A stretch of 32,544 nt of DNA from a virus. Below, in pieces: positions 2,159-30,472 of this stretch (its first letter is position 1; each line of letters starts with the position of its first letter). A program made the position numbers and the translations under genes. Under the pieces are notes generated by a model. The model saw only the letters and a list, made by a program, of their open reading frames with translations. It was not told the origin of the DNA and did not search any database. The stretch is from positions 1 through 32,544 of the IMG/VR virus record IMGVR_UViG_3300048599_000816; one strand, 5' to 3'.

Positions 2159-2345
2159 AAATCCTCCTTATGGTGGTGATAGAATTAGATATCGCAAGTT
2201 GCTTGGAATTTACCAAGCACTTGTTTAGCCTTGGATGATGCTATACCCTAAGATCAAAATGATGCTTATTAAATATAATCCCATAACTCTCTCCTTTGTT
2301 AGTGATAATAACTATATCGTGAGTTGTAGTGTAATTGCCAATAGC

Positions 2346-2365
2346 AAGCGCTAAAGCGCTTGCGC
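2346..2365. other. perfect palindrome GCAAGCGCTAAAGCGCTTGC immediately 3' of the Cys-rich gene stop; hairpin or operator
   Basis: Seen in sequence; no T-tract after it on the minus strand, so terminator role is uncertain. Confidence 0.35.
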
Positions 2366-2369
2366 TTGG

Positions 2370-2570
2370 TTACTGATTAAAGAATTTGAGATTTTCGCTT
2401 GGCTTGGGAATTACTTGCGTTTTCTTGCAGTGCTCTGGTGAATTATGATAGATGCATTTACTGCCACAAGGTTTTCCGTAAGCATAATCAGTATCAAGAC
2501 CTACGCAAGGTTGTCCGTTATCTGCTGTTTTGCAATACTGCCAGTAATTTTGATTTGTTTCGTTAGCCAT
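2370..2570 (-). CDS. 66-aa Cys-rich small protein (MANETNQNYWQYCKTADNGQPCVGLDTDYAYGKPCGSKCIYHNSPEHCKK..)
   Basis: Internal ATG of track ORF 2370..2645 preceded by AAAGGAG and the conserved motif; 6 Cys. Confidence 0.55.
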   Translation of the reverse strand: MANETNQNYWQYCKTADNGQPCVGLDTDYAYGKPCGSKCIYHNSPEHCKKTQVIPKPSENLKFFNQ

Positions 2571-2619
2571 AGTGTAACTCCTTTGAATGGTGATGATAGT
2601 TATATCGCAAGAGCGTTTG

Positions 2620-2820
2620 TTACTTGCCAATAATGATGTCGGCAAGTTTCATGTCAAGTAAAGCGTCAAGTTCTTGTTGTGAGGCATTGATAGTTTTGCC
2701 ATACTGTAGTGCATAAGTAATGAGCTCTTCTCTTGTACCAGGTTTGTCATTAGACGCTAGTTCTATCATCTTAAGAAGTTTAATGTTTCTTTCTCTCTTG
2801 CATCGTTTCGCTACAGCCAT
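2620..2820 (-). CDS. hypothetical 66-aa protein
   Basis: ORF track; AAGGAGAGA RBS; motif upstream (2844-2875). Confidence 0.65.
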   Translation of the reverse strand: MAVAKRCKRERNIKLLKMIELASNDKPGTREELITYALQYGKTINASQQELDALLDMKLADIIIGK

Positions 2821-2843
2821 AATCTCTCCTTTGGTTGTTAGTA

Positions 2844-2875
2844 GTTATATCGTGAGAAAGCGTGATACTGCCAGT
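2844..2875 (-). promoter_or_regulatory. conserved gene-proximal promoter-like motif (representative copy)
   Basis: TGGCA-N16-CGATATAAC then SD and ATG of 2620..2820. Confidence 0.55.
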
Positions 2876-2977
2876 GGAGTTGCGAGTTTGTTGAGCATCA
2901 TGCAAGAGTTATGTAAATGGTTCTATTGGCGAAAAACGGCAAAGGGCTCGTAGGCCCTCTTACTGATTGTAGGTTGA

Positions 2978-3493
2978 TTAAGCAGCCTTTGATTCAGGTG
3001 TTACTTCAGCAACCGGAGCAGCCTGGATAATTTTGGCAGTTGATTTCTTTTCAGTTGGTTTGGTAGATTTCTTTGCATCTTTCTTTGTTTCCTTGGCAGC
3101 CGGGGTAGTTACAACCGAAGTTACAGGAGCCGGTGTTGCTTTGGCAGTTGATGTAGCCTTGACAACCGGTTTGAGAGATACCAAGATGTTGAGAAGGTTG
3201 GAGAGTTCGTTGTTGTCTGCCACCTTTTTGATGGTACCGATGATTTTACCGCATCTGCCAGCTTCGAGGCGTTCTTTTGGATAAGGTGTGAAACGGTCCT
3301 TCATGTCAGCTGTTGATTCGGTAACTTCAAGGGTTGAGCCTTTGAGATACCAGGTGTGACCGTTGGCAGCCTTGAAGCATGAGCAAGATGTTTTGATTAT
3401 GGTTTCGATATCTTTGATCTTGATCTCTTTAACTGTGATAACTGATTTGGTTGAAGTTGTTGTGATTTCGGTGGTTTTTGTTGATGTTGTCAT
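2978..3493 (-). CDS. hypothetical 171-aa protein with Thr-rich N-terminus and Ala/Lys/Thr-rich low-complexity tail (histone-H1-like composition)
   Basis: ORF track; AAGGAGATACAAACATG RBS; motif upstream. Confidence 0.8.
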   Translation of the reverse strand: MTTSTKTTEITTTSTKSVITVKEIKIKDIETIIKTSCSCFKAANGHTWYLKGSTLEVTESTADMKDRFTPYPKERLEAGRCGKIIGTIKKVADNNELSNLLNILVSLKPVVKATSTAKATPAPVTSVVTTPAAKETKKDAKKSTKPTEKKSTAKIIQAAPVAEVTPESKAA

Positions 3494-3538
3494 GTTTGTA
3501 TCTCCTTGAAAGTTTGTTTGTTGTTTTGTTTGATAGTA

Positions 3539-3569
3539 ACTATATCGAGAGAAAATAAAAAACTGCCAG
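3539..3569 (-). promoter_or_regulatory. conserved promoter-like motif; its TGGCAG is the 3' arm of a terminator hairpin
   Basis: minus strand reads CTGCCAACACTGGCAG-TTTTTTATTTT-CTCTCGATATAGTTACTATCA. Confidence 0.55.
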
Positions 3570-3579
3570 TGTTGGCAGT
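3553..3579 (-). terminator. rho-independent terminator (6-bp stem CTGCCA/TGGCAG, loop ACAC, TTTTTTATTTT)
   Basis: Seen in sequence on minus strand downstream of gene 3758..4072 and the GC-rich repeat A. Confidence 0.6.
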
Positions 3580-3589
3580 GTCATGAGCA

Positions 3590-3735
3590 ACTCACGATAT
3601 AAGCCGCTCACGTAGCGCTTGAGTGCGTACTTCCGCTTACATGCGCTCATGCTCGCACACTTGTACGCACATTCGCTTGGCTCTAGTGCGCTTAAGTATA
3701 GGCGGCACTCACTGGCTACCTTCACATGAATGATG
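3590..3735 (-). repeat. GC-rich repeat element copy A (core ATGTGAAGGTAG-N3-GTGAGTGCC followed by ~100 nt GC-enriched sequence with AGCGCT/GCGCTTG)
   Basis: Shares ordered core blocks with copy B at 6000-6130; both lie directly 3' of a gene stop. Confidence 0.55.
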
Positions 3736-3757: not shown

Positions 3758-4072
3758 TCAACAACCTGTAGCACCATAAAAATCACCATCAGTATCTGGA
3801 TTGTATTGACGTATGGTAGAAATATTGGGATTAAGCTCTGCCAAAGTATAGTAATCAGAATCACCTTCAAGAGTCAAACATTGATAGTAAATTTCGTTTT
3901 GAAAATTTCGTGTATTGCCATTAAAGAAAAACATAACGTTTGCAAAGTCACCTGTCTTATCCTCAGAATAAAAAACGTCATGTTTCTTGAGAGTTATTGA
4001 AGCAACTTTAGTTGCTATTCTCTGCTGTTCATCTTTATAAGCCTGTTGCTTTTTTGTAAGTTTCTTTGCCAT
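3758..4072 (-). CDS. hypothetical 104-aa protein
   Basis: ORF track; AAGGAGAGAGAATG RBS; motif upstream (4099-4130). Confidence 0.75.
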   Translation of the reverse strand: MAKKLTKKQQAYKDEQQRIATKVASITLKKHDVFYSEDKTGDFANVMFFFNGNTRNFQNEIYYQCLTLEGDSDYYTLAELNPNISTIRQYNPDTDGDFYGATGC

Positions 4073-4129
4073 TCTCTCTCCTTGGTTAGTTGATATATAC
4101 TATATCGAGAGAAGCACAACAAGCTACCA

Positions 4130-4453
4130 TCAAGACTTCAAGTAAAGCGCAAAAAGTTCAGGGAAGGTAGTTTCAAGTTGATTCAAACAACGCTTCTTAT
4201 GCAATTTCTCCGTAAGCTCTTCAAATGTCACACCATAAAGTCTCTTTGCAATATCGTCAAGCACACTAAAATGTGACACAGCACACTCAGGAAAATTCTT
4301 TACAACAAGTTCACCTACTGCTTTCCAATCAACTACAGCACTTGAAAAAATAATAGAACGTAAAAAACTTGCAATATCACCTGATCCCATATTCGTAAGA
4401 ACTGCAAGCTTCCTTGAAACAAACTCCTTAATCTCCTGCTCTGACCAATTCAT
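4130..4453 (-). CDS. hypothetical 107-aa protein
   Basis: ORF track; AAAGGAGAGTTATG RBS; motif upstream (4501-4533). Confidence 0.75.
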   Translation of the reverse strand: MNWSEQEIKEFVSRKLAVLTNMGSGDIASFLRSIIFSSAVVDWKAVGELVVKNFPECAVSHFSVLDDIAKRLYGVTFEELTEKLHKKRCLNQLETTFPELFALYLKS

Positions 4454-4541
4454 AACTCTCCTTTGTTTATTGATATGTGCTGTGCACCATCCTTTGGATG
4501 ACTACTATATCGAGAGAAAGCAACAAAACTACCAAAATAAT

Positions 4542-4600: not shown

Positions 4601-4879
4601 TTACTTATAATATTTTTTCAAGATTGCATTCAAATCAACTGTATCAGACACACCACGGATCACCGCTTTAATCGAACCCAGATGACAACTCACGATCACT
4701 TCATCAGAATAACGTTCCACGCGCTTTCCAAGCTCTTTAATCGGATTGGTAATTTCCAAAGCACGACCCTTAAGCACTGCCTTCTTTTCGCCCCGGATAA
4801 ACGTAACTGACGATTTCTTCTGTTCTACTGTAACGCCTTTGGGAAGAACGAGATCCTCGATAACGATTGCTTCAGCCAT
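4601..4879 (-). CDS. hypothetical 92-aa protein
   Basis: ORF track; AGGAGGATTTTTTATG RBS; two tandem motif copies upstream (near 4911 and 4983). Confidence 0.75.
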   Translation of the reverse strand: MAEAIVIEDLVLPKGVTVEQKKSSVTFIRGEKKAVLKGRALEITNPIKELGKRVERYSDEVIVSCHLGSIKAVIRGVSDTVDLNAILKKYYK

Positions 4880-4991
4880 AAAAAATCCTCCTGAATATTG
4901 TTGTTAGTTATATCGTTTCTTACCAGCTTCACTGCCAGGGTTTGTTTCACAAGTTGTTTTATTTCTTCCTGATAGTTACTATATCGTGAAA

Positions 4992-5303
4992 TTACGCCGG
5001 AATGCCAATCGCATTTTTACAACCAGCACATTCCTGCAAAGGATTATTACAAGTCTCAAGCTTACAAGTAGCATCTTCAGGATACTCTTGCTCTTCATCG
5101 CTAATATCGCTCTCAAGCGACTCCATTACTTCCTCAAGACATGGTCCATTAGACACATACTCGTTTGACACCTGCTTACCATACGCTTTCCATCGCTCAT
5201 AAAGACTTAAATTTGTACTTCTAAGCGCCTGATCAAATTCATTAAAAGCAGACTCAAGTCTTCCAGCAATCTCCTGTATTTCTTCAAATTCATCGCGTGT
5301 CAT
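4992..5303 (-). CDS. hypothetical acidic 103-aa protein
   Basis: ORF track; AAGGAGAGACTATG RBS; motif at 5329-5360. Confidence 0.75.
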   Translation of the reverse strand: MTRDEFEEIQEIAGRLESAFNEFDQALRSTNLSLYERWKAYGKQVSNEYVSNGPCLEEVMESLESDISDEEQEYPEDATCKLETCNNPLQECAGCKNAIGIPA

Positions 5304-5702
5304 AGTCTCTCCTTGTTTGTTGATAGCTACTATATCGTGAGAAACTCAGATGGCTGCCAGCAAATATACAAACGATATACTAACACGTACGTCCTTCCGT
5401 GCGTAGCATATCGGGGAAGTGTATCTATACAAGATCGTTAGACACAGTTTAGCACAAACAAAACAGCCCACCCATATATTATATAGGCAGGCTGCACTTA
5501 TAGGAGAGACGAATACTCGTGTTTATTTAATTGAAACTATTACCATCCTTGTCCTCTCAACTGTCGTATATTCTTTACCAACTTCATAACCAGCACCCTG
5601 ACGATCAGACATAAGAGAAAAAGTAAACTCCATACCCTTCAAATGACCTGTCAACATCCTCTTTGTTATCACCCATGTTCTCATCACAAACTCCTTTGTT
5701 GC

Positions 5703-5873
5703 TCAATACAATATCGCGAGATACCCGGCAACAGCCAACTGATTTTCTGCTTTAATACTTGAAGCTTCAGATATACAATCACTCTTCACTTCATCATTAC
5801 ATATATCAGCAAACTCACATATACTACAATCAATTCCCAACTCAATAATCTCTGCTTGCAAATTTCTTTCCAT
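5703..5873 (-). CDS. 56-aa Cys-rich protein (MERNLQAEIIELGIDCSICEFADICNDEVKSDC..)
   Basis: Not in track; AAGGAGAGAACATG RBS and motif upstream; hand translation. Confidence 0.5.
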   Translation of the reverse strand: MERNLQAEIIELGIDCSICEFADICNDEVKSDCISEASSIKAENQLAVAGYLAILY

Positions 5874-5999
5874 GTTCTCTCCTTGGTTGATAGAGACTAT
5901 ATCGTCTCAATGCAAACAAACTACCAACCAAATAATCTCTTTGCCTTCAGCCTGTGTAACAGAATCCATTATAATAGCAATCTGGTAATGTAAGTTTTC

Positions 6000-6149: not shown

Positions 6150-6317
6150 TCATACCAATGCTAAAAACTCTTCCAAAGTACGAGCTGTTTCAAGTGCAAT
6201 TTTGAGATTCGCTATATCTTCTTCATTAATCACAGTATCTCGTTCCGGGCGTCCTGTAAGCTCAACAAAAATACTATTTGTTTTCTTCCTCGTTGATTTC
6301 TGCATTTCAGTCTCCAT
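6150..6317 (-). CDS. hypothetical 55-aa protein (METEMQKSTRKKTNSIFVELTGRPERDTV...)
   Basis: Internal ATG (M24 of track ORF 6150..6386) preceded by AAAGGAG and motif. Confidence 0.6.
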   Translation of the reverse strand: METEMQKSTRKKTNSIFVELTGRPERDTVINEEDIANLKIALETARTLEEFLALV

Positions 6318-6389
6318 AATCCCAACTCCTTTGTTAGATTTCATTTGGATATATACTATATCGTCATCATGCAACCCAACTACCATACA

Positions 6390-7262: not shown

Positions 7263-7901
7263 TTACTTGATGTATGGTTTTGCTTTGCCGCAGAGTGTAC
7301 GAAGTCTTATGAGATTTGCCATGCCGTTGGCAATGCGGTAGAGTCTTTCACCGAATCCTTCTTTCATCGAGTATTTATGAGTTGTCATGAAGAATTTACT
7401 GAAGTCGGCTCCCATTTTTGCAACCAGTTCTTTTTTGAGTGTTTCATCTTCAAAGACTTCGGGACGGAGTATAACTGTAGAAGTTTTGATGACTTCGGTT
7501 GCATATTTGTCGCCCAGCAGAGTTTTCAGTGTTTCCTGGTCTTCTTTTTCCTGGGATGGTGAGAATTTGTCCTGGGTGATGAATGTGGCAGAAGTTTTTC
7601 CGTCGTCTGTGATGACCGTGTAAGAGCCGTGGAAGTCGTCTTTGAGACCATCGGTGTCCTGACGTTCAATGCAGTATTCAAGAAGTGGTCCTTCAGCTGC
7701 TCTCATGTTTCCTTCGGCTGCTTTGTATTCCTTTTTATAGCGAAGGAAGTCGATGAATTTGACTGACATATCTTTGTCAAGTTTGATGATGGGTTTGTCG
7801 CCTTTTTTGGGCGCTGAACTTGCTACGGTTGCTTCACCGAGCATTTGTTCGAACGATATTTCTTCGGGTCGGGTTGTAGTGGCTTTCTTTTTTCCTGCCA
7901 T
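7263..7901 (-). CDS. hypothetical 212-aa protein
   Basis: ORF track; AAGGAGATACAACAATG RBS; motif upstream (near 7938). Confidence 0.85.
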   Translation of the reverse strand: MAGKKKATTTRPEEISFEQMLGEATVASSAPKKGDKPIIKLDKDMSVKFIDFLRYKKEYKAAEGNMRAAEGPLLEYCIERQDTDGLKDDFHGSYTVITDDGKTSATFITQDKFSPSQEKEDQETLKTLLGDKYATEVIKTSTVILRPEVFEDETLKKELVAKMGADFSKFFMTTHKYSMKEGFGERLYRIANGMANLIRLRTLCGKAKPYIK

Positions 7902-7956
7902 TGTTGTATCTCCTTCTGAATGTTTTTTGCTTTTGATATATCGTTTTTTGTTGTTG

Positions 7957-8166
7957 TCATTGCCAACAGGTTTTTCGTTTGCAAAAGTTTAGACCTTCAT
8001 TCCATGCAGAGACATATTCAGGTTGACTATTAAGATATGCTTTACCTCGTACGCCAGCTCTGAAAGCTTCCAGCAAGTATGTTCTGTTCATATAATTTAG
8101 TTCATAATTACATGCAGGGCAAGACATATTGAATTCTAAATCGTGTGTTTCACAGTATCCTGACAT
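7957..8166 (-). CDS. 69-aa Cys-containing small protein (possible zinc-binding)
   Basis: ORF track; AAGGAGAGATTATG RBS; motif upstream (near 8203). Confidence 0.7.
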   Translation of the reverse strand: MSGYCETHDLEFNMSCPACNYELNYMNRTYLLEAFRAGVRGKAYLNSQPEYVSAWNEGLNFCKRKTCWQ

Positions 8167-8199
8167 AATCTCTCCTTGTTGAATACACTAACTATATCG

Positions 8200-8427
8200 T
8201 TAGTTGTGAGTCTGCTGCCAACAAGAACATTTGGGTCCAAGTAGAGACCTGCATTGTGGACAGAGTACTATGTCTCTGAAGTATGCAAAGACGATATCAA
8301 GATCTTCAATAAGAAGATTGTTGTCCAAGATGATGTCTTGGATTTTTTCAGAGTCTTCTTCGAAAAGATCAAATTGATCAATGACTTTTTCAGCCATTTC
8401 AAGAAGTGCGTCACTTACATGCGACAT
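8200..8427 (-). CDS. hypothetical acidic 75-aa protein with C-terminal CxxC..CxC
   Basis: ORF track; AAAGGAGTTACTTTATG RBS. Confidence 0.7.
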   Translation of the reverse strand: MSHVSDALLEMAEKVIDQFDLFEEDSEKIQDIILDNNLLIEDLDIVFAYFRDIVLCPQCRSLLGPKCSCWQQTHN

Positions 8428-8661: not shown

Positions 8662-8765
8662 ATTTTCTCTCCTTTTATATTATATGATATCGAGAGATTT
8701 TTTAGGTTTTGCCATGGAGATGAGTTGAAGAGGTGCGATTATATTTTGCGCTTTATAGATATAGA

Positions 8766-9411: not shown

Positions 9412-9717
9412 TTAGTTGCTTAAATACTTGTTTAGCCATTGGTATGGTTTGCCGTTTGTTTCTTCGAATTTTTCCCATTCAGCTTTGTTTCGTTCAATAG
9501 CAGCGTTATATTCTGCTTTAGTTTCATATGTTGACCAGTAGCGGCCGTATGGACTGTCCCATTCAATCATGTCTTGACCGAGGTTGTTTACGTCAAAGTC
9601 AGAGATGACATCAGGTTCAAATTCATTATATTCAAATACTTCTTCATAAGTAGGGATGAAGACGTTCTCAATTTCGATTCTACTGTCTTGTTCGATTTCG
9701 ATTTGATATTTCGGCAT
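9412..9717 (-). CDS. hypothetical acidic 101-aa protein
   Basis: ORF track; AAGGAGAGAACATG RBS; motif near 9751. Confidence 0.8.
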   Translation of the reverse strand: MPKYQIEIEQDSRIEIENVFIPTYEEVFEYNEFEPDVISDFDVNNLGQDMIEWDSPYGRYWSTYETKAEYNAAIERNKAEWEKFEETNGKPYQWLNKYLSN

Positions 9718-9771
9718 GTTCTCTCCTTGATTGATATAAACTATATCGAGAGATTTTATGGCACTGCCATC

Positions 9772-10351: not shown

Positions 10352-10597
10352 TCAAAATTCTAAGCAAAAGTTTATGATAGATTCATCACCTGATCTTTTG
10401 AAGCCTTCATAGATCGAGAGAATTCTGTGTGAAATGTCTGAAGAAGAAATGCCTTGTTGAGTTTCAGCAAAATCTTTTTCCAGTGAATGAATAGCAGTAA
10501 GACGAACTAATTTTTGATCGACTGAATCAAGTGATTCGAACCAAACATTTTTTTCATCAAAACGTTCTTGAATAGTTTTTGTTGTTTCTGTTGTCAT
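10352..10597 (-). CDS. hypothetical 81-aa protein
   Basis: ORF track; AAGGAGAGACTTATG RBS; motif 10621-10652. Confidence 0.8.
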   Translation of the reverse strand: MTTETTKTIQERFDEKNVWFESLDSVDQKLVRLTAIHSLEKDFAETQQGISSSDISHRILSIYEGFKRSGDESIINFCLEF

Positions 10598-10656
10598 AAG
10601 TCTCTCCTTTTTGTGATGATAGCTATATCGTGAGAAAGAGTGAGTGTGCCAAAGGA

Positions 10657-10694: not shown

Positions 10695-11024
10695 TTACCA
10701 AGATTTGTATTCAAAGACATGTTCTGGGTAGATGGGATCATGATAGTTACATGGAGCAAGAACGTCTTCAACCCATCTGATCCCTGCATCGAGTCTTTCT
10801 ACAGCGAAGTTACAGATGTCTTCCTGATTGACTGCAAAGAAAAGATCGTTTCTTCCGCCTTCACCGCCGTCACCGGGAAGTGTAACAATTTCTTCTAAGT
10901 ATTGGACCCGAACATTGAAGCTTTCTTTCATAAAGGAAACGAATTCATCGATTTTTTCAGCACCTACTAAGCATCCAGGCCATACACAAACCTGTTTGAA
11001 GCCTTCATTACGTTGAATTGTCAT
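10695..11024 (-). CDS. hypothetical 109-aa protein
   Basis: ORF track; AAGGAGAGATTATG RBS; motif near 11053. Confidence 0.8.
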   Translation of the reverse strand: MTIQRNEGFKQVCVWPGCLVGAEKIDEFVSFMKESFNVRVQYLEEIVTLPGDGGEGGRNDLFFAVNQEDICNFAVERLDAGIRWVEDVLAPCNYHDPIYPEHVFEYKSW

Positions 11025-11077
11025 AATCTCTCCTTGGTTATTGATGATAACTATATCGTGAGATTAAAAACTTTTGC

Positions 11078-11290
11078 CTAACTTTTTTTGCGAACTTCTA
11101 AGATTCCTGCTTCTCTGTCAGCCATTCTTTTCTTATGAAACTCTTTTGCTTTCTTTATTACATTTCGTCTTTTCAATTCAGCATAGACAAGACTATTCCA
11201 TTTGCTCTTGCCTTTATGAGTTATCCAAGTAGAATACTCTAAAAGAAGTTTATCTTCGCTTAAGCCTCGTAAGTATGAATCGTCAGTCAT
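11078..11290 (-). CDS. hypothetical basic 70-aa protein
   Basis: ORF track; GGAGTAAGAAGATG RBS; preceded by terminator-like repeat copy 2 rather than the standard motif. Confidence 0.65.
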   Translation of the reverse strand: MTDDSYLRGLSEDKLLLEYSTWITHKGKSKWNSLVYAELKRRNVIKKAKEFHKKRMADREAGILEVRKKS

Positions 11291-11817: not shown

Positions 11818-11842
11818 GTTCTCTCCTTGTTTGTTGATAGTA

Positions 11843-11875
11843 ACTATATCGAGAGAAAGATGTTTAGTTGCCAAT
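11843..11875 (-). promoter_or_regulatory. conserved promoter-like motif (near-consensus copy: TTGGCA-N17-CGATATAGTTACTATCAAC)
   Basis: Seen in sequence upstream of the J-domain gene. Confidence 0.55.
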
Positions 11876-12061: not shown

Positions 12062-12300
12062 GAATCTTCACCTACTTCTTCAACATATTTCCAGTTGGAG
12101 TAGTTGAGTTCAAGTTTCATAGCTTCAGGTAGCATTTTGAAGATGCTTGAGACAAGTTTGTCTTGCATTTCAGCAATTGGTTCAACCTTTTCAGCTGCAA
12201 AAAGCATATCTCTTACTCTTGACAGTTGTTCTGCAGTGTATGTTTCAGGTGCACCAGTGTCATTGCATCCAAATTGTTGACCGTGATAAGCTTTCTTCAT
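12058..12300 (-). CDS. hypothetical 80-aa protein
   Basis: ORF track; ATGA overlap with upstream 58-aa GTG-start ORF. Confidence 0.7.
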   Translation of the reverse strand: MKKAYHGQQFGCNDTGAPETYTAEQLSRVRDMLFAAEKVEPIAEMQDKLVSSIFKMLPEAMKLELNYSNWKYVEEVGEDS

Positions 12301-12473
12301 GATTTTTCCTTTGCTTGTTCTTTGCCGAATCTGATTGCATTCATAATTTGGGCTTCAATTGCTCCTTGATAGTCACCTCTTGGCATGCCATCACCAGTAT
12401 GATAAGCTTCAGCTAATTCAAGGATTACATCAGAGATTTCCATTATTTTTCTTGATTCTTCAGGACTAATCAC
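12297..12473 (-). CDS. possible 58-aa protein with GTG start (VISPEESRKIMEISDVILELAEAYHTGDGMPRGDYQGAIEAQIMNAIRFGKEQAKEKS)
   Basis: AAGGAGAGAAT-GTG; the in-frame ATG is immediately followed by TGA; stop overlaps next ATG; hand translation. Confidence 0.4.
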   Translation of the reverse strand: MISPEESRKIMEISDVILELAEAYHTGDGMPRGDYQGAIEAQIMNAIRFGKEQAKEKS

Positions 12474-12493
12474 ATTCTCTCCTTGTTGATAGT

Positions 12494-12526
12494 AACTATA
12501 TCGAGAGAAACAAATGGAACTGCCAC
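12494..12526 (-). promoter_or_regulatory. conserved promoter-like motif (TGGCA-N17-CGATATAGTTACTATCAAC)
   Basis: Seen in sequence directly after terminator 12550-12587. Confidence 0.55.
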
Positions 12527-19063: not shown

Positions 19064-19099
19064 CAAAAACAAAAAAGGCCCTGGCATTCGCCAAGGGCC
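19064..19099 (-). terminator. rho-independent terminator (GGCCCTTGGC..GCCAGGGCC, TTTTTTGTTTTT) fused to next promoter motif
   Basis: Minus strand: hairpin, T-tract, then TGGCAACACATACTACTTCTAACGATATAG. Confidence 0.6.
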
Positions 19100-19924: not shown

Positions 19925-19981
19925 AGTCTCTCCTTTTGTTGATAGTTACTATATCGCGTGTTGCGAAATAGTTGCCAACAA

Positions 19982-20338: not shown

Positions 20339-20479
20339 TTATTCTAAACCAGCAAGTGTTCTGAGTTCTATTAAAAGATTTTCGACAGAAGAACTTTCAG
20401 GACCATTTGACATTTGAGCGATTTTTATCATACGAGCTTTTGAAGCAATCAAAATCATGTTGAAAGAAATTGGGTCCAT
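20339..20479 (-). CDS. possible 46-aa protein (MDPISFNMILIASKARMIKIAQMSNGPESSSVENLLIELRTLAGLE)
   Basis: AAGGAGAGAACATG RBS plus motif copy (20505-20536) plus upstream terminator; stop overlaps next RBS; hand translation. Confidence 0.45.
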   Translation of the reverse strand: MDPISFNMILIASKARMIKIAQMSNGPESSSVENLLIELRTLAGLE

Positions 20480-20537
20480 GTTCTCTCCTTTGTTTAGTGA
20501 TAGTAACTATATCGTGAGAAAGCGAGAGAGTTACCAA

Positions 20538-20563
20538 AACACAAAAAGGGGGCTTAAGCCCCG
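20538..20563 (-). terminator. rho-independent terminator (GGGGC-TTAA-GCCCC, TTTTTGTGTTTT)
   Basis: Immediately downstream of lipoprotein gene stop (20568). Confidence 0.6.
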
Positions 20564-20567
20564 CATT

Positions 20568-21401
20568 TTAGTAAGTGAGTTGAACGAATACTTGGTCATA
20601 AGTTGCACTGAAAGTAGAAGCACCTATTTCATTCCAAGTTGTGCCATCAGTAGATCCAAAGATAGTTATACTTGATGGTTCTTTGTAGAAGAAAGTTTCC
20701 CAAGATGCGATTTTAAGTTGTGTGAATACATAAGCTGCACCCATATCAACAGTCCATGACCAGGGAAACGTACTGAATTTTATATAACCACCACTTGCTG
20801 TAGTATCACCATTAAACAAAGATGACAGTTCATTGCCAGTCTCAATAGCTGAATGTGATACTGTTGTATAACCACCAACAACTGGAGTATTCACATTAAG
20901 AAATGATGTCTCTGTAAGAATGGCTTCATTAGGACCACCAATACCAATGCTGTTTACAGTAAGTTTATAATATCGGTATCCATAATTTGTGGGTTCTACC
21001 TCGCCCAAGATCTGTACGCTTCCAGTGACTCGGGATAATGTGACTGGTACAGCTGTTACTTCACCACCAGAGATATCTGCTGTAGATGTGCCTTCATATT
21101 GAGGAGCTCCAACAGAATCATAAATAGTAACTTTAAACGATCTTCCTTTTCCGACTGGAATCTCGTCAACTCTTCCACTTATTAAGTTGGGACTTACAGA
21201 CATACGCTTTGAAATTGTTTGCATACCATGTCCTGCAACTTGCAGATCAGCAGTTTTTATGACTTCCTGTTGAGCATTAGCAGTAGAAACTTGACATGTT
21301 ACTGTACCTGTACCGTCATCATGAGACAAAACTGATAGAGGACCTTTTCCACTACAGCTTACAAGTAACATTGTTGTGATAAAAACTAGAAATGTCTTCA
21401 T
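20568..21401 (-). CDS. predicted lipoprotein (signal peptide, lipobox LVSC) with C-terminal discoidin/F5-8 type C-like (galactose-binding-like) domain
   Basis: N-terminal MKTFLVFITTMLLVSCSG; C-terminal ..GDTTASGGYIKFSTFPWSWTVDMGAAYVF.. pattern; AAAGGAGGCTTCTTTATG RBS; motif 21442-21474. Confidence 0.75.
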   Translation of the reverse strand: MKTFLVFITTMLLVSCSGKGPLSVLSHDDGTGTVTCQVSTANAQQEVIKTADLQVAGHGMQTISKRMSVSPNLISGRVDEIPVGKGRSFKVTIYDSVGAPQYEGTSTADISGGEVTAVPVTLSRVTGSVQILGEVEPTNYGYRYYKLTVNSIGIGGPNEAILTETSFLNVNTPVVGGYTTVSHSAIETGNELSSLFNGDTTASGGYIKFSTFPWSWTVDMGAAYVFTQLKIASWETFFYKEPSSITIFGSTDGTTWNEIGASTFSATYDQVFVQLTY

Positions 21402-21543
21402 AAAGAAGCCTCCTTTGTTGTGATGTAATTAGTTGATAGCAACTATATCGTGAGAAAGCGAGAGAGGTGCCAAAAAGAAGGACTCCCTTTTTGCGACCAC
21501 AAACAAGTTCAAAGTTAAATGTCGTGGTCAAGGGAGTCCAGAA

Positions 21544-21925: not shown

Positions 21926-22294
21926 TTAAAAAAAGAATCCCATAATATCTTTAGGTGTTGTTTTTGTTGTCAAGATTTTTTCTATATCGATGACATTAGA
22001 TGGTTTATATCTAATGTTCATTTTTTCAAGATATTGACGAATAGCATCCATACGGAGCTTTTTCATATGACCACTTTGCGTCAATTTTATCTCTTTAGTT
22101 ATTTGAACTTCAAGATTATCAAGCAATCCTTTTTGTTTTGCTTGTGTGTAATGCCTACACAATCTTCTAAAGCCAAAGCCCTTACATGAACATGAATCAT
22201 GAGTGATTTTGTATGTATGACCTGAGCCAGATATACATTCAACGTACCCTGATTTAAGGGTAAAGATATCGGGTCCTTCTATTTTAACACCCAT
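21926..22294 (-). CDS. SWIM zinc-finger protein (CSCKGFGFRRLCRH), 122 aa
   Basis: CxCx(n)CxH seen; start overlaps upstream gene by 11 nt. Confidence 0.75.
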   Translation of the reverse strand: MGVKIEGPDIFTLKSGYVECISGSGHTYKITHDSCSCKGFGFRRLCRHYTQAKQKGLLDNLEVQITKEIKLTQSGHMKKLRMDAIRQYLEKMNIRYKPSNVIDIEKILTTKTTPKDIMGFFF

Positions 22295-22595
22295 ATTCTA
22301 CCACGATTTCTCCAGTAGAGAAGATATTAATAAGAATCGGGATATCTTCAAAAAGAAGAACGACGCAAGTTCCATTGTCAGAGTAATCAACGTTTGTAAC
22401 TTTTCTGTTTATTACTTTTTCCAGTATTTCAATCCCATATTCTATCACTATTTTCTTTGAAGAAAAGATACTCATAGGGTCAAGCTCTTCTTCGAAGAAA
22501 AGAACGATGCAAGTGTTTTCGTCGGAAAAGTCGAATTTTACGAGTTTTTTCCCGACAGCTTTTTTCAAAGCTTCTATTGTTTTGGGATTTGCCAT
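22284..22595 (-). CDS. 103-aa protein made of two tandem ~45-aa repeats (..DFSDENTCIVLFFEE..IVIEYG / ..DYSDNGTCVVLLFED..IVVEYG)
   Basis: ORF track; AAAAGGAGAGTACATG RBS; motif near 22623; internal duplication visible in translation. Confidence 0.8.
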   Translation of the reverse strand: MANPKTIEALKKAVGKKLVKFDFSDENTCIVLFFEEELDPMSIFSSKKIVIEYGIEILEKVINRKVTNVDYSDNGTCVVLLFEDIPILINIFSTGEIVVEYGC

Positions 22596-22649
22596 GTACT
22601 CTCCTTTTGTTGTTACAAACTATATCGAGAGTTTTTTGATAGGTTGCCA

Positions 22650-22904
22650 TTAAAGAAGTTGATGTGTTCCCTCATACGGAACTATTTCTGAAGTTTCAGG
22701 TGTCGTCTTCAAGTCTCCAACTATTGTTTTAAGCAATTCCAGATTTCTTTTTAATGCTTCATGATCTAAATAGGGAAGACATTCATCATTTGCTACAATC
22801 CATTCAAGATCACTTATTGTGCACTTCAAGGGAAGTGTAAACTTTTCTAACTCATGGTCAGCTTTTCTTTTTTGAAAGACTGTACCTTTAAACTTTACTG
22901 GCAT
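22650..22904 (-). CDS. hypothetical 84-aa protein
   Basis: ORF track; TTAGGAGATAGTATG RBS. Confidence 0.75.
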   Translation of the reverse strand: MPVKFKGTVFQKRKADHELEKFTLPLKCTISDLEWIVANDECLPYLDHEALKRNLELLKTIVGDLKTTPETSEIVPYEGTHQLL

Positions 22905-23125: not shown

Positions 23126-23342
23126 CCTTTGTTACAATGTTAAGCCATTCAGCAACACAACGTACTGGTTCTTCACGTGATTCAACTTTAACATAGACTG
23201 CATTGTTGTCAGGTGCACCATACTCAACAACTTCACCTTGACCTTGAAATTGCTTTAAAAAGCCTGATGAACAATCTACAAGATCACCAACCCGAAGCCC
23301 ATAATACCGGTTGCGTTCTTCGTTGTCCCATGGTTTAGTCAT
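23103..23342 (-). CDS. hypothetical 79-aa protein (starts MTKPWDNEERNRYY)
   Basis: Internal ATG (M7 of track ORF) overlapping the stop of the upstream 46-aa gene (ATGACTAA). Confidence 0.55.
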   Translation of the reverse strand: MTKPWDNEERNRYYGLRVGDLVDCSSGFLKQFQGQGEVVEYGAPDNNAVYVKVESREEPVRCVAEWLNIVTKVEDRGCI

Positions 23343-23475
23343 CTCTAAATGCCTCTTCATTAGGATCTATTTCTTCATCAACAAATTTGTCTAACGTCTC
23401 TCGTAATTCTTCTTCAGGTACATCCCAAACTAGACCTTTGATAGACTTAAGATAGTCAAAAAGATCATCAGACAT
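23335..23475 (-). CDS. possible 46-aa acidic protein (MSDDLFDYLKSIKGLVWDVPEEELRETLDKFVDEEIDPNEEAFRDD)
   Basis: TAAGGAGGTAACTATG strong RBS; degenerate motif near 23513; hand translation. Confidence 0.5.
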   Translation of the reverse strand: MSDDLFDYLKSIKGLVWDVPEEELRETLDKFVDEEIDPNEEAFRDD

Positions 23476-23582
23476 AGTTACCTCCTTATAATAAGAAAGA
23501 GATATCGTCAAAAAAAAATCTTATGCCAAACAAAAAGAGCCTGCATTTAGCAGGCCCCTTCAGGAGATAACTATGGACAGAA

Positions 23583-24629: not shown

Positions 24630-24674
24630 AATGTTCTCTCCTGTTGAGGTACTAAAATTATATCGTTTGTTTAT

Positions 24675-24977
24675 TTACTTTTTGCCAACTGTACAAAACT
24701 TAAGACTACCAGCAATGCACCGATAGGTAACAACCTTTTCAAGGATTTCGTATTCGCATTTGTCTAAGTCATAGAGTTTTTTGAAAGTTTCAATTGCTGT
24801 CCATTCATCTTTTGCTGTAAGCGTGCAGCATTCTTTTTTCATTTTAAGAATGTAAGTGTGCCAGTCAGCTGCAAACTTATTTAAAGCAGGAATACCGCCT
24901 ACACCAAGAGAAAGACCTTGTGTATAATAACCATCTTTCTTAATTTGTTCGATTTTTCGTTTTGTATCGGCGTTCAT
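24675..24977 (-). CDS. hypothetical 100-aa protein
   Basis: ORF track; AAGGAGAAAACATG RBS; variant motif near 25004 (TGATATAAT in place of CGATATAG). Confidence 0.8.
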   Translation of the reverse strand: MNADTKRKIEQIKKDGYYTQGLSLGVGGIPALNKFAADWHTYILKMKKECCTLTAKDEWTAIETFKKLYDLDKCEYEILEKVVTYRCIAGSLKFCTVGKK

Positions 24978-25127
24978 GTTTTCTCCTTGTTAGTTATTAT
25001 ATCACATGCTTCAGTCGAAACTACCAAAAAGATTGAGAGAGCCTTTCAAGTAAAAAACAAACGGGATCCATAATTTCCTATGGATCCCAATTTTAAGTGT
25101 GCTCTAACCTAACGAGACTGATTCAGA

Positions 25128-27302: not shown

Positions 27303-27374
27303 TTTCTCTCTCCTTATTAGTTAGTGTTCCTTTTCCTTACACTAACTATATCGCGAGTTATCGCGGTTTTGCCA

Positions 27375-27551
27375 TTATATTGTATCTACTTTTAGAGGCA
27401 TTATATCAATTTCAATTTCATCAAGATCAACAATTGAGTCACATTCATCCCATGAAAGAGGCCCCTTAGGAAGTTGATCTCTTTCCTGAGCTTCTTCGAC
27501 TAAAGACAAGAAAAAACTTTTGTTGCAAAAATCAGATGCACGAACTTTCAT
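27375..27551 (-). CDS. possible 58-aa acidic protein (MKVRASDFCNKSFFLSLVEEAQERDQLPKGPLSWDECDSIVDLDEIEIDIMPLKVDTI)
   Basis: GAGGCACTATG SD; hand translation; its ATG overlaps TGA of a possible upstream 44-aa basic ORF. Confidence 0.4.
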   Translation of the reverse strand: MKVRASDFCNKSFFLSLVEEAQERDQLPKGPLSWDECDSIVDLDEIEIDIMPLKVDTI

Positions 27552-27795
27552 AGTGCCTCATTTCTTCTTTTAGTTGCTTTCTTTTCACGATACTTTTTTA
27601 TGTTACGTTTATCACCTGCATCCAAAGTGTAACCTTGGGGCAAACTAGAAAGCGATTTTGGAACATTTTTTAATTTCATAATATTTTTATATCGTGATAA
27701 ATCCGATCATTGCCATTCTTTTATTTTTATACTAAAACAGAAAGAGCTCTCGGCATTTTTACCAAGAGCTCTTCTTTATCAAGGAGAGAGAGTTT

Positions 27796-28161
27796 TCAAG
27801 ATTGAGGTTTGTCAGGTTTTGTCGCTTTTTGCATGTCCATAAACATTGCCAAAGGGAAAAGCAAAAGTTTGATAGAAACAATTGCTCCAATATAAAGTCC
27901 TGTTATTACAATGACACCAATAGCATTTTCGAAAGTTCCTGATGAATATGCTGTTGGTTGTTTCCAAAAGTTATCAAAAAGCGAAACACCATTGATTACA
28001 ACTGGACGAGTACTAATAATAAAAAACAAAGGCAAGATAGAAAATATCAGAATTCTTTTGACTGTCTTGAGAAAGGGAAGAGCATTGCAAATCAATTTCT
28101 CAATTAGACCAAAAATAAAGATGAACACAATCACAAAAAAACTAACCAATATTAACGCCAT
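27796..28161 (-). CDS. small integral membrane protein, 121 aa, 3-4 predicted TM segments (holin-like size, unassigned)
   Basis: Hydrophobic stretches in translation; ATCAAGGAGGTTTTTATG strong RBS; motif near 28186. Confidence 0.8.
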   Translation of the reverse strand: MALILVSFFVIVFIFIFGLIEKLICNALPFLKTVKRILIFSILPLFFIISTRPVVINGVSLFDNFWKQPTAYSSGTFENAIGVIVITGLYIGAIVSIKLLLFPLAMFMDMQKATKPDKPQS

Positions 28162-28234
28162 AAAAACCTCCTTGATAATTTCGATATCGAGAGATAGTAG
28201 AGAACTGCCAGGAGCATTTTAGCTCCTGTGAGGA

Positions 28235-29044
28235 CTATATCGAGAGATTAGTTGTTTCAGCCACCTTTTTTTGTCTTCTTTTTTGTTGTGCTATTCTCAT
28301 GTTTTTGATTTGCTCTGGCGTTCTTTTTTGACCATAAACATTGCTTAAAATCCCTTTTCTTCCATAACTTGAATTGTTTTTGCCAGATCTTTCTTTGCTA
28401 TACAAATCTTTTAATTGTTTTGCTTTTTCTTCTCCATAAAACTCTTCATAAGTCTTTCCTTTTCTTGAAGATTCTCTTCCTGTTATATCACCAAAATTGC
28501 GATTACCTAACATTGCTTGACTATGTTGTTTTCGAAGTTTGTCACCTTTTTCTTTCCCGTAGATTTGTTCGTAAGTCTTGTTTTTACGTTTTTCACTGAT
28601 TAACTTTTTTGTAGATTCTAAGACAATCTTTCCTTTTTGTGACAAACTCATTTTTTGCTTTGTTTTTTCAGAATGTTTCCTACCAGAGAAAGTATCTCCT
28701 CCATCACCCCCAGGTGTCAAATTTGTTAAAGGTCCTACAAGTCCATTTTGTACTTTTCTTCGGCCTATGTTCTTTATCAAGTCTATTTCTAGATCATTTG
28801 CTTCTTTAAGGAAAAGATTTTCTTTTACTTTGATAATTATTGGTGTTAAACCTAAACTTACAATCTTTTGAATTTTCTTTGATTTCATAGTTCCATCAAG
28901 ATAAACCAAATGATCTAAGAATCTTTTGTTTCTTCCTCTTCCAACATAAAAAGGCTCGTAATCAAATTCATACTTGTCATACTTGTATTTTTTGTTTTTT
29001 CTTGGATCAAAGTAGATGTATACATAAAAGTTGTTCTTTAACAC
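28235..29044 (-). CDS. GIY-YIG homing endonuclease with three NUMOD3-like repeats (GRKHSEKTKQKMS.. / GRESSRKGKTYEEF.. / GKNNSSYGRKG..), GTG start
   Basis: N-terminal VYIYFD...PFYVGRGRNKRFLDH matches GIY-(10-11)-YIG + R + H pattern (established family signature); RBS AAGGAGA buried in a perfect hairpin; stop codon is the TAG of a motif copy. Confidence 0.8.
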   Translation of the reverse strand: MLKNNFYVYIYFDPRKNKKYKYDKYEFDYEPFYVGRGRNKRFLDHLVYLDGTMKSKKIQKIVSLGLTPIIIKVKENLFLKEANDLEIDLIKNIGRRKVQNGLVGPLTNLTPGGDGGDTFSGRKHSEKTKQKMSLSQKGKIVLESTKKLISEKRKNKTYEQIYGKEKGDKLRKQHSQAMLGNRNFGDITGRESSRKGKTYEEFYGEEKAKQLKDLYSKERSGKNNSSYGRKGILSNVYGQKRTPEQIKNMRIAQQKRRQKKVAETTNLSI

Positions 29045-29045
29045 A

Positions 29046-29068
29046 AAAATCTCCTTGAAGGAGATTTA
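29046..29068 (-). promoter_or_regulatory. perfect hairpin AAATCTCCTT-CA-AGGAGATTT sequestering the homing-endonuclease SD, followed by TTTTTGTGTT (also terminator-like for upstream gene)
   Basis: Seen in sequence; 3' arm contains AAGGAGA 5 nt before GTG start. Confidence 0.6.
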
Positions 29069-29093
29069 TATCTTACAAAGATTTTCTTATCAA

Positions 29094-29969
29094 TTATTTT
29101 GCTATTTCAATGATTGCATTCCATGCATTTTCTTTTAAATAAGAAGCACCAAGAACTGAATTTGCAAGCCTTGTTTCTGCATCAGCAGAACGGTAATGAT
29201 CAATCCATTCGACGTAACCATTGTACAAGTCGTAAGCAGTTCCCTTACCAGTGCCCATACCTGCTTCATAGCATTCTTTAACTTTGTTGATAAGATTTTC
29301 CTGCCGTGTCCCGCCTTTTTCACTGAAGCATTCTTTTATGAAAGCATCAACCATCTGAGCATCAAGTACCTTCTGTGCAAGAATTCTGCATTGATCTTCG
29401 AACTTCTTAAAGTATTCCATACCAGCAGCCAGAATTCTGAGAGCTTCACCTGCTTTGATTTCACCATTTTTTGTATGGTGAACTTTGCATTTGTTATCTT
29501 TTGCCCAGCCCCATAAGCCATTTTTGCAAATTTGACGCCATGTAGTGAACTGTGCAGTAAAGGGATATGAACCATCGAAAGTATTAACAAGTTGGATTTT
29601 ACGAAAGACTTCATCGCCTTTTCTGATTTCAATTGCTCCATTGACTGTAGCTTCAAGGATAACTTTCCGACCACCATCAATGACATAAGCACCTGTGTAT
29701 CGTGCATTGTGCTGTGCACATACTGTGTCAAACCAACTGTAAGCAAATGAAGGTTGAAGTGGTGTATAACGATCACCTACAACACCGACGATTGCATGAT
29801 TATCAGAACGAACTACAGCCTTCTGATCAGGGATAATGATACCACCAGGAATTGATCCTGTTGATTTTGTTGTCATGTCAACGAGTTCAGCAGTCCAATT
29901 TGACTGTGATTTGTCGAGCGCTTCTTCAGCTGTTTTAACTCCACCCAAATCGTAATAAATTGCTTTCAT
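29094..29969 (-). CDS. DUF932-like (plasmid/phage-associated) protein, 291 aa; assignment tentative
   Basis: Overall length and pattern recollection only; AAGGAGTTGAGATG RBS; motif near 30012. Confidence 0.6.
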   Translation of the reverse strand: MKAIYYDLGGVKTAEEALDKSQSNWTAELVDMTTKSTGSIPGGIIIPDQKAVVRSDNHAIVGVVGDRYTPLQPSFAYSWFDTVCAQHNARYTGAYVIDGGRKVILEATVNGAIEIRKGDEVFRKIQLVNTFDGSYPFTAQFTTWRQICKNGLWGWAKDNKCKVHHTKNGEIKAGEALRILAAGMEYFKKFEDQCRILAQKVLDAQMVDAFIKECFSEKGGTRQENLINKVKECYEAGMGTGKGTAYDLYNGYVEWIDHYRSADAETRLANSVLGASYLKENAWNAIIEIAK

Positions 29970-30042
29970 CTCAACTCCTTAGAAAGGTTGTATTGTTTTG
30001 ATATGAACAATATCGTGAGATTCTCGTTATACAGCCAAATAA

Positions 30043-30393
30043 TCACAAACATTTGCAGAAAAAACGCTCACCGAACTCATTGACAAAATAAACATTTTCT
30101 TCTCCACGATTAGTTTCTGAAATTGCTCCTATTCTCAGACGAGCTTCCATTTCCTTAATACTTAGTTCTGTACATTTTTCGCTTTCTTCTAATCTATATT
30201 CGATAAGCTGTTTCTCAATCAATCTTTTCGGCAAGATTTCATCCTTAATATGCTTTGCTGCATTATTCTCAAGAAATGTAATATCTGTATTGATATCAGA
30301 TTGCATTTTCAAAAGCGTTTCTTTATTTGCATTACAAACAAAGTTAAATATCGCTTCTCCTATTATTAGCTTTGACTTATCAATATTGAACAT
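30043..30393 (-). CDS. hypothetical 116-aa protein
   Basis: ORF track; TTAGGAGTGTAGAGATG RBS; motif 30436-30466. Confidence 0.75.
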   Translation of the reverse strand: MFNIDKSKLIIGEAIFNFVCNANKETLLKMQSDINTDITFLENNAAKHIKDEILPKRLIEKQLIEYRLEESEKCTELSIKEMEARLRIGAISETNRGEENVYFVNEFGERFFCKCL

Positions 30394-30472
30394 CTCTACA
30401 CTCCTAACTTATGTTACACATTGTTTTAACAATAAGCTATATCGTGAGAAGATTGTTGGGTGCCAAACTTAT

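Follow-up and report, generated by a model that had tools for sequence, protein, structure and literature searches.

What reads the genes of a virus when dozens of them are preceded by the same short sequence? The question is raised by a 32,544-nt stretch of virus DNA, positions 1 to 32,544 of IMG/VR record IMGVR_UViG_3300048599_000816 (this whole stretch is called the window below). From 32544 down to about 2050 its genes lie almost all on the minus strand. An earlier reading of the letters alone (the sequence-only reading) had described a motif in front of them, TGG(C/T)A followed after 16 or 17 nt by CGATAT and then by a Shine-Dalgarno (SD) sequence and ATG. Our analysis of the window and related phages suggests that this motif is a class-specific bipartite promoter, combined in one cassette with a ribosome-binding site (RBS) and in part of the copies with a terminator, and that it is probably read by an alternative factor of the sigma-70 family.

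The window was taken to be a piece of a huge uncultured phage of about 427 kb, because a recorded protein identical to its rIIA comes from a 426,911-bp Joint Genome Institute contig. When 20 kb of the window were compared at the nucleotide level with 50,697 phage records, there were no matches. The relatives used were L003, a 158-kb Logan contig (rIIA 91% identical, 36% G+C); Ga0265297_10000052, alias IMGVR_UViG_3300029288_006769 (424,144 bp; rIIA 57% identical; 46% G+C, against 37% in the window), called the 424-kb relative here; and many short metagenome contigs carrying the motif. L numbers below denote stretches from these relatives.

All 37 minus-strand positions listed in the sequence-only reading proved to be real copies, most of them within a few nucleotides of the site given (the copy given as 27680 lies at 27693, and the one given as 8203 lies at 8198). 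Copies were recovered by anchoring on CGATAT with TGG(C/T) 22 or 23 nt upstream, and the position of a copy is that of the G of CGATAT. One weak copy was added at 2193, which makes 38 minus-strand copies, from 2193 to 30443. The 16-mer GATAGTAACTATATCG occurs 23 times in the window with three or fewer mismatches, compared with 0.18 expected. We also scanned the window with a two-block weight matrix trained solely on 223 copies from other genomes, which is the source of all scores in bits. At a threshold of 14 bits it found 36 minus-strand and 2 plus-strand sites, whereas 20 Markov-random sequences contained none and reached 10.6 bits at best. The regular spacing and conservation that had been read by eye hold in a formal search. 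Three sites score marginally, each directly before an SD and ATG: the weak copies at 23506 (23490..23529, minus strand, 10.0 bits, gene 23335..23475) and 2193 (2177..2216, minus strand, 9.3 bits, offset 22; ATG at 2158, gene 2048..2158) and a degenerate plus-strand copy, cGGCA-N13-CTCACGAcAT, at 263..303 (8.7 bits). The last had been placed at 264-298, before the plus-strand helix-turn-helix (HTH) gene 311..595. It is kept in the close relative L127 and does precede an SD and ATG, but its score is below the random maximum.

The spacing of the two blocks was also as first read. Measured from the T of TGG to the G of GATAT in 260 unique pooled copies, the offset is 22 nt for 36% and 23 nt for the other 64%. 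The pooled consensus is tTGGCAr-N10-wwCTCwCGATATAGtTwnTATCAa; that of the window alone is T-TGGCA, 11 variable nt, (A/T)TCTC(A/T)CGATATAGT(T/A)nnTATCAAC. Information is confined to tTGGCAr and CTCwCGATATAGt, plus a T-A at +11/+12 (counted from the G), and the roughly 10 positions between the blocks are uninformative. The downstream bases C-G-A-T-A-T are invariant. In the upstream element TGGCA, GG was imposed by the search, and the search-free positions are T in 93%, C in 90%, and A in 85% of copies.

Placement of the copies agrees with a promoter and short leader, rather than a random repeat, as had been proposed. That nearly every gene carries a copy was an overstatement, since about 65 minus-strand genes share 38 copies. 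Copies occur wherever at least about 33 nt separate a gene from the one upstream, and nowhere else. Genes without one lie 15 nt or less from the upstream gene or overlap it and are therefore operon internal. This is the pattern expected if the copies head operons of one to four genes each. Most genes have a strong AAGGAG SD sequence. The claim that the motif regularly sits between a terminator and the RBS went too far as well: a hairpin with a T-run lies within 75 nt upstream of just 9 of the 38 copies (7% of random positions), and any GC-containing hairpin lies there in 17 (21% of random positions). In several copies TGGCAG itself forms the 3' arm of a terminator. One example is the hairpin 3579-3562 at copy 3546 (3530..3569, minus strand, 43.2 bits, gene 2978..3493). 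Terminators also lie at 4567-4543, just upstream of copy 4511 (4495..4535, minus strand, 29.4 bits, gene 4130..4453), and at 12587-12562 and 12540-12522, upstream of copy 12502 (12486..12526, minus strand, 42.1 bits, gene 12297..12473).

Where would transcription begin? The sequence around the motif indicates that the start probably lies at +12 from the G of CGATAT. A pyrimidine-purine pair occupies +11 and +12, its T and its A each 79% conserved. In 226 copies with an SD and start codon, no SD begins before +12 (with one odd exception), and SD starts become abruptly more frequent at +15, the positions up to about +14 being left clear; the distance from motif to SD spans 12 to 44 nt. The shortest leader in the window, with an SD from +12, is that of gene 18642..19019 (copy 19042, 19026..19066, minus strand, 31.0 bits). 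In addition, 11 distinct antisense-oriented copies are followed from +12 or +13 by a conserved noncoding element in place of an open reading frame (ORF).

An SD-less gene family with the signature MKRKRRW.KEYRC bears on the same point. Its ATG lies exactly at +12 in L003/L175, L164, L179, and L180, with a different 7-nt filler in each of these four lineages. It lies at +15 in L176/177, and L178 has a degenerate motif and an SD. The transcript is probably a leaderless mRNA, judging from this arrangement. The proteins are Cys-rich, 54 to 75 amino acids long, and encoded outside the window on the 5' side of the block (L003 3508, L164 3087, L175 1501, L179 367, and L180 906). Within the window, copy 27693 (27677..27716, minus strand, 14.4 bits) precedes an SD-less ORF, 27548..27679, with its ATG at +14. 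A start at +12 places CGATATA at -13 to -7, the A of CGA at -11, and, in the 23-nt class, tTGGCAr at -36 to -30. The sequence-only reading had taken TATAGT, 20 bp from TTGGCA, as the best -10 (it sits 19 to 20 nt away). The -10-like element is instead CGATAT(A); the predicted start at +12 would put CGATAT at -13 to -8.

The motif belongs to a particular group of phages and to one block of their genomes. In L003 and the 424-kb relative it is kept before both orthologous and nonorthologous genes, in the latter despite 57% rIIA identity and a 9-point difference in G+C content. When a metagenome collection was scanned with a strict 39-bit pattern, 35 stretches were found in sludge, landfill, and sediment (including lake sediment), with 31 to 48% G+C, and 33 of them carry many more loose copies, at 1 to 3 per kb and essentially all in one orientation. 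The strict pattern gave three single chance matches in 185,579 bacterial and archaeal species genomes (one per species), a partial test because the pattern includes downstream positions. Relatives with 45% or less rIIA identity have neither the motif nor a comparable repeated word. Among them is LR756500 (462 kb, 24% G+C, rIIA 34% identical), the best full-record relative at the protein level. A literature search with the motif string returned primers only. For the 424-kb relative, 41,360 nt in block orientation were assembled from three loci. They hold 30 loose copies at 13.5 to 34.3 kb, a block of about 21 kb, with two more in the 13 kb upstream (2257 and 3615) and none in the 7 kb downstream, where G+C content falls from about 0.47 to 0.35. 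Over the entire 424 kb the strict pattern matches four times, always inside one 11.8-kb stretch. The window's own block extends from beyond 32544 down to about 2050, where it meets plus-strand genes convergently.

The geometry of the motif is, on its sequence, normal for the sigma-70 family: there are two conserved blocks and a nonconserved spacer that tolerates a change of 1 nt either way. Its consensus agrees with the view that the motif is not of the housekeeping sigma-70, sigma-54, or Bacteroidetes type. Against the housekeeping form TTGACA-N17-TATAAT, positions -12 to -7 read GATATA, with G-12 in 100% and A-7 in 83% of copies and an invariant C-13. Scans with TTGACA/TATAAT-type consensuses in the window and relatives gave counts at shuffle level. 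The Bacteroidetes sigma-A elements, TTTG at -33 and TAnnTTTG at -7, are both missing from the consensus, and strong SDs precede most genes, which Bacteroidetes sigma-A genes usually lack. Because two relatives are labeled Nanoarchaeia in NCBI, we considered an archaeal TATA box with B recognition element. We rejected it: in the shortest leaders transcription would then begin beyond the SD, and the genes are of bacterial-phage type. The window's one perfect TTGACA-17-TATAAT lies at 32196-32168 (minus strand), inside ORF 32084-32446 and about 100 nt upstream of a conserved 307-amino-acid gene. We did not adopt it as a bootstrap promoter: besides lying in an ORF, it keeps just 10 of 12 positions in L003 and was not seen in the 424-kb relative.

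The core of the -10 is that of FliA (sigma-28/SigD) promoters. The -10 resemblance to extracytoplasmic function (ECF) sigma factors of the CGTATA type, which had been suggested, did not survive: the motif has CGA, never CGT, and this is the FliA/SigD core. Nor does a GCAAC or GTAAC upstream element mark it as ECF, since there is no AAC consensus and TGGCA is followed by A/G and then T/C; ECF spacing and geometry are compatible with the motif. The sigma-28 promoter of fliC has TCTAAAG at -36 to -30 and GCCGATAA at -15 to -8; the A at -11 is flipped, the base at -7 is not (PMC12784957). The core CGATA(A/T) is identical to that of the motif, in which CGATAT is invariant and, given the predicted start, in the same register, and both would then have a 7-nt upstream element at -36 to -30, CGATA from -13, an A-11 that is likely to be flipped, and a start about 12 nt after the G. 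However, the -35 is TGGCA here and TAAAG there, and the extended -10 is CTCw, with the GC at -15/-14 replaced by C-w. The settings differ too, a phage gene block as opposed to the flagellar regulon, and no FliA-like gene was identified in the regions searched.

Those searches, which covered about 10% of the genomes, detected no sigma factor, RNA polymerase, or AsiA/MotA family member among about 66 window proteins, in 41 kb of the 424-kb relative (including 20 proteins flanking the block), or among 40 larger ORFs from other motif-bearing stretches. Two window proteins had been put forward as the factor, and neither is supported. The 94-amino-acid HTH protein (311-595) has weak similarity to sigma region 4 in a PDB sequence search (E = 0.009). 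It has three homologues in 5.8 billion proteins, with none on the 424-kb or 158-kb motif-bearing contigs. For the 162-amino-acid Zn-ribbon/HTH protein (30473-30961), L003 encodes a homologue, but the 424-kb relative, where the motif is kept, has no full homologue within the 41 kb surrounding its block. PDB sequence searches with this protein and the 307-amino-acid protein returned nothing.

Recognition by a dedicated factor, as first proposed, is still the most economical reading of a consensus that is nonhousekeeping and phage specific. The reader would most likely be an alternative sigma factor (group 3/FliA-like or ECF-like) encoded elsewhere in the phage genome or brought with the virion. 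A phage-supplied factor is favored because the consensus does not fit a housekeeping sigma factor, is invariant across phages of 31 to 48% G+C, and is absent from bacterial genomes. In the mechanism we propose, a region-4-like module would bind tTGGCAr at about -36 to -30, and a region-2/3-like module would bind CTCwCGATATA at about -17 to -7, the A of CGA being flipped out at -11. The first transcribed base would be the conserved A at +12 from the G of CGATAT, giving leaders of 0 to 25 nt, and the transcripts of some units would be leaderless or noncoding. Each cassette would consist of the promoter and a strong SD, with a preceding intrinsic terminator in a quarter to a third of copies. The cassettes would head the short operons of a 20- to 35-kb hyperplastic block of early or host-takeover type (rIIA, rIIB, a DnaJ-domain protein, a helicase, and dozens of ORFans). 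As a side effect, the repeats could serve as recombination points for gene swapping.

Several points weigh against this proposal. The start site is inferred from sequence, and none of the sequence searched (the window, 41 kb from the 424-kb relative, and other motif-bearing stretches) showed a sigma factor or RNA polymerase gene. Early genes are normally read by unmodified host polymerase, so an early-looking block would need a phage sigma factor that either is injected or is the product of an unseen immediate-early unit. TTGGCA is one base from the housekeeping -35 TTGACA, and the TAAAG and the GC at -15/-14 of FliA promoters are absent. A bolder extension, which we offer tentatively, is that this uncultured clade of about 425-kb phages runs a private transcription system, in which a phage-supplied sigma factor with a FliA-type -10 and a new -35 (TGGCA) drives a fast-shuffling takeover module of 20 to 35 kb with leaderless mRNAs and antisense small RNAs.

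Other readers are conceivable. It is unlikely that small phage proteins redirect the host housekeeping holoenzyme, in the style of T4 MotA/AsiA, with TGGCA as the activator box and TATAGT as the -10. Some features do suit such sigma appropriation. The rIIA and rIIB genes are classic middle/early genes in T4, TATAGT fits TAnnnT, and the tiny proteins without an assigned family that fill the block could include such factors. PmSL cassettes on Mot-box promoters exist in T4-like phages (PMC4122927). However, a TATAGT -10 would move the start to +14 to +16, truncating both the SD-less ATG at +12 and the beginning of the noncoding element, and the invariant bases are C-G-A-T-A-T rather than the TAnnnT positions. 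The 19 to 20 nt from box to TATAGT also exceed the spacing of about 12 between a Mot box and its -10, and no window protein matched the AsiA or MotA families.

Slightly less likely again are ordinary early promoters of the host housekeeping sigma factor, with a consensus that deviates from TTGACA/TATAAT. The block is of early type, TTGGCA matches TTGACA at five of six bases and in the normal position, and its spacing to GATATA is 17 to 18 nt. Yet the motif does not vary across phages of 31 to 48% G+C from sludge, landfill, and lake sediment, and the rIIA relatives at 45% or less identity do without it. Its strict form is never multicopy in the 185,579 species genomes (again with the downstream positions included, and hence a partial test). 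It also has no T at -7 and has an invariant C-13 and G-12, and we know of no described housekeeping consensus with that combination.

Just as improbable is a sigma-independent phage RNA polymerase, either single subunit (T7/N4-like) or multisubunit (phiKZ/AR9-like) and possibly injected. Injected polymerases solve the question of who reads the first genes, and the motif is highly stereotyped, phage specific, and, within a very large phage, limited to a block of early type. However, split blocks with 1 nt of spacer play either way are a sigma-70-family signature. T7-type promoters are contiguous (about 23 bp, -17 to +6), and the motif has a separate block 17 to 18 nt upstream with variable spacing; the phiKZ and AR9 motifs are short and start proximal. 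There is no conserved hairpin like that of N4 early promoters, nor a cruciform: in the pseudo-palindrome ATAGT-T-ACTAT of the motif, pairing equals the expectation for independence, mutual information is 0.10 bit or less, and covariation is absent. No polymerase gene was found in the regions read.

An element acting at the RNA level within long polycistronic transcripts, such as a processing site, translational enhancer, or antitermination signal, is very improbable. Its short and constant distance to the SD and ATG would suit such a role, and transcripts would include its downstream half (TATCAAC..AAGGAGAGA). Against this, the upstream half is set off by a nonconserved spacer of fixed length, a feature of DNA geometry, and nothing covaries. 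Terminators precede a quarter of the copies, the distance to the SD ranges from 12 to 44 nt, and the motif also precedes SD-less ORFs at +12 and noncoding elements on the opposite strand. Sigma-54 promoters can be dismissed: TGGCA(C) equals the -24 element and a GC lies 10 nt after GG in copies 4511, 5903, 6362, and 21449, but the expected -12 positions are G in 18% and C in 29% of copies, the block spacing varies by 1 nt, the predicted start is 32 to 33 nt from GG and not 24, and no enhancer-binding protein was found.

Two good copies in the window have the opposite orientation, at 3596 and 5374 on the plus strand. The first (3572..3612, 20.0 bits) stands back to back with copy 3546 and is followed by GC-rich, SD-less sequence that is conserved in L127. 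The second (5350..5421 including its element, 15.0 bits) shares an overlapping -35, TGGCTGCCA, with copy 5336 (5320..5360, minus strand, 38.6 bits, gene 4992..5303). From +12 it is followed by a hairpin and GCAUAUCGGGGAAGUG at 5386-5421. This element comprises a short 5' hairpin with one covarying pair (GC/AU/CG) and then invariant (G)CAUAUCGGGGAAGUG or GGAGAUCGGGGAAGUG, and it is SD-less. Instances were found at window 5350-5421 (plus), L127 7751 and 9535, L128 1430 (minus), L131 791 (minus), L133 1244 and 2684, L142 659, L143 276 and 886, and L174 10659 (minus). Neither the window nor the small-RNA-like regions gave an Rfam match. On its sequence, the element is a candidate phage small-RNA family. 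At 3565-3577 and 5351-5359, where the sense and antisense copies stand back to back, the -35s are adjacent or overlapping (TGCCA..TGGCA and TGGCTGCCA, respectively), forming divergent promoter pairs. Such a pair is also present in the 424-kb relative (composite 31614 plus/31622 minus) and in L127 (8156).

The genes behind the copies, all on the minus strand, are mostly small. Recognizable products are rIIA (25128-27302; copy 27352, 27336..27375, 34.4 bits), rIIB (23583-24629; copy 24664, 24648..24688, 24.6 bits), a DEAD/ResIII helicase (13267-14793; copy 14826, 14810..14850, 31.7 bits), a DnaJ-domain protein (11419-11817; copy 11850, 11834..11874, 44.4 bits), a DUF932 protein (29094-29969; copy 30014, 29998..30038, 36.5 bits), and a homing endonuclease (GIY-YIG/NUMOD3; 28235-29044). 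The remaining 46 small window proteins all lack a credible Pfam or PHROG match. The leader of rIIA contains a stem-loop, AGUUAGUGU...ACACUAACU, between promoter and SD (window 27302-27352, minus strand; L003 9952-10000; L004 9950-10000) that is kept in all three lineages.

Two genes have tandem copies. Gene 4601..4879 follows copy 4914 (4898..4938, 23.8 bits), with 4985 (4969..5008, 35.2 bits) as the upstream promoter of the pair, and gene 27796..28161 follows copy 28188 (28172..28211, 34.8 bits), which is in tandem with 28241 (28225..28264, 24.2 bits). At the 3' end of the block, copy 2318 (2302..2341, 42.8 bits, offset 22) precedes an SD and ATG 2284, copy 2606 (2590..2630, 27.9 bits, offset 23) precedes gene 2370..2570, copy 2851 (2835..2874, 38.7 bits, offset 22) precedes gene 2620..2820, and copy 4106 (4090..4130, 35.6 bits) precedes gene 3758..4072. 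Farther on are copies 5715 (5699..5738, 27.9 bits, gene 5523..5687), 5903 (5887..5927, 29.7 bits, gene 5703..5873), 6362 (6346..6386, 23.8 bits, gene 6150..6317), 7942 (7926..7966, 16.3 bits, gene 7263..7901), 8198 (8182..8221, 28.5 bits, gene 7957..8166), and 8691 (8675..8715, 22.0 bits), the last with an SD and ATG 8659 of a small membrane-peptide ORF. Next come 9747 (9731..9770, 42.5 bits, gene 9412..9717), 10629 (10613..10652, 37.4 bits, gene 10352..10597), 11057 (11041..11080, 37.5 bits, gene 10695..11024), 16179 (16163..16203, 22.8 bits, gene 14853..16145), 17739 (17723..17762, 35.6 bits, gene 17400..17702), 19955 (19939..19978, 40.0 bits, gene 19649..19924), and 20513 (20497..20537, 40.3 bits, gene 20339..20479). 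The series is completed by 21449 (21433..21473, 40.0 bits, gene 20568..21401), 22626 (22610..22650, 39.3 bits, gene 22284..22595), 25003 (a TGATAT variant; 24987..25027, 16.5 bits, gene 24675..24977), and 30443 (30427..30466, 26.4 bits, gene 30043..30393).

Other features of these phages were noted along the way. The ORFs behind copies 2318 and 8691 (2225-2284, listed as 2225..2284, and about 8570-8659, both minus strand) encode hydrophobic products of 19 and 29 amino acids, each with its own motif copy and SD, and would escape normal gene calling. A stretch of 875 nt within the block, 6387-7262, has no convincing gene, with a terminator at 7215-7193 upstream and copy 6362 downstream. Between the plus-strand unit and the motif block lies a noncoding convergent region of about 350 nt (1700-2050), whose GC-rich core at 1910-2040 has ggcc/ccc runs and folds no better than shuffled sequence (z = 0.17). 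The first 2 kb, the plus-strand unit outside the block, holds seven of the window's nine CTATAG/CTATATAG palindromes, often (1-2000) in the form gaCTATAGa; these could be a different regulatory or modification site. A short way upstream of the block in the 424-kb relative, and close to a motif copy, is a gene (L173 16856-17959, minus strand) whose product resembles type IV pilins, with an N-terminal methylation motif and a PilW domain, a hint that the host may possess type IV pili or a type II secretion system. Downstream, the same block is followed by a gene for a Na/Ca exchanger.

Breaks in synteny with L003 coincide with motif copies. The cassette 21472..20541, behind copy 21449, is replaced there, and the 5-kb helicase module 12460-17405 is missing. 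Between the DUF932 gene and the following cassette, the window has the inserted homing endonuclease gene, which lacks a motif copy; L003 does not have this gene at that place. About 17 of 62 block genes are common to the window and the 424-kb relative.

Metagenomes are almost the only source of knowledge on huge phages, and we know of nothing on how these schedule gene expression. The motif would give a temporal class defined by sequence, with about 40 predicted promoters marking one module of 20 to 35 kb. The predicted start and specificity, a FliA-like -10 with a new -35, should point to the factor in a fully annotated genome, and the motif offers a compact, apparently orthogonal promoter and RBS part.

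How does the cassette compare with known systems? Phage SPO1 encodes the sigma factors gp28 and gp33/34, and its late -10 is GATATT. Its late promoters are similar in that a dedicated sigma factor acts on a noncanonical bipartite class with a GATAT-type -10. Synechocystis SigF recognizes TAGGC at -32 (PMC2532724), an upstream element of the same T(A/T)GGC type. However, the sequences of both match only partly, and no homologous factor was found in the regions searched here.

Among described devices, the PeSL/PmSL cassette of T4-like phages comes closest; in it a stem-loop and an early or middle promoter are followed by an SD and ATG (Arbiol 2010, PMC2839356; Comeau 2014, PMC4122927). PeSLs and PmSLs are repeated in hyperplastic ORFan regions and have been implicated in modular shuffling (PMC2839356; PMC4122927). 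PeSL promoters are sigma-70-like (TTGACA/TTTACW-N17-TATAAT-like), and PmSLs use the TGCTT Mot box (PMC4122927). As in PeSLs, a -35/-10 promoter, SD, and start codon form one unit, joined in part of the copies by a stem-loop, with tens of copies before small ORFans near rII-type genes, and gene insertions and replacements between relatives are bounded by cassettes. In contrast to PeSLs, the consensus here is tTGGCAr-N16-CGATATA, which is not of the sigma-70-like form, and a stem-loop accompanies just 24 to 45% of copies, approximately. The carriers also differ, an uncultured phage of about 425 kb as opposed to T4-like myoviruses of 160 to 250 kb. The cassettes described here are thus not PeSL members in the strict, sigma-70-like sense, and they extend the promoter-terminator cassette principle of T4-like phages to another promoter chemistry and a much larger virus. 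Phage-specific repeated promoters and dedicated sigma factors are well known. The cassette is not new in principle; what is new is the sequence form of a known phage device.

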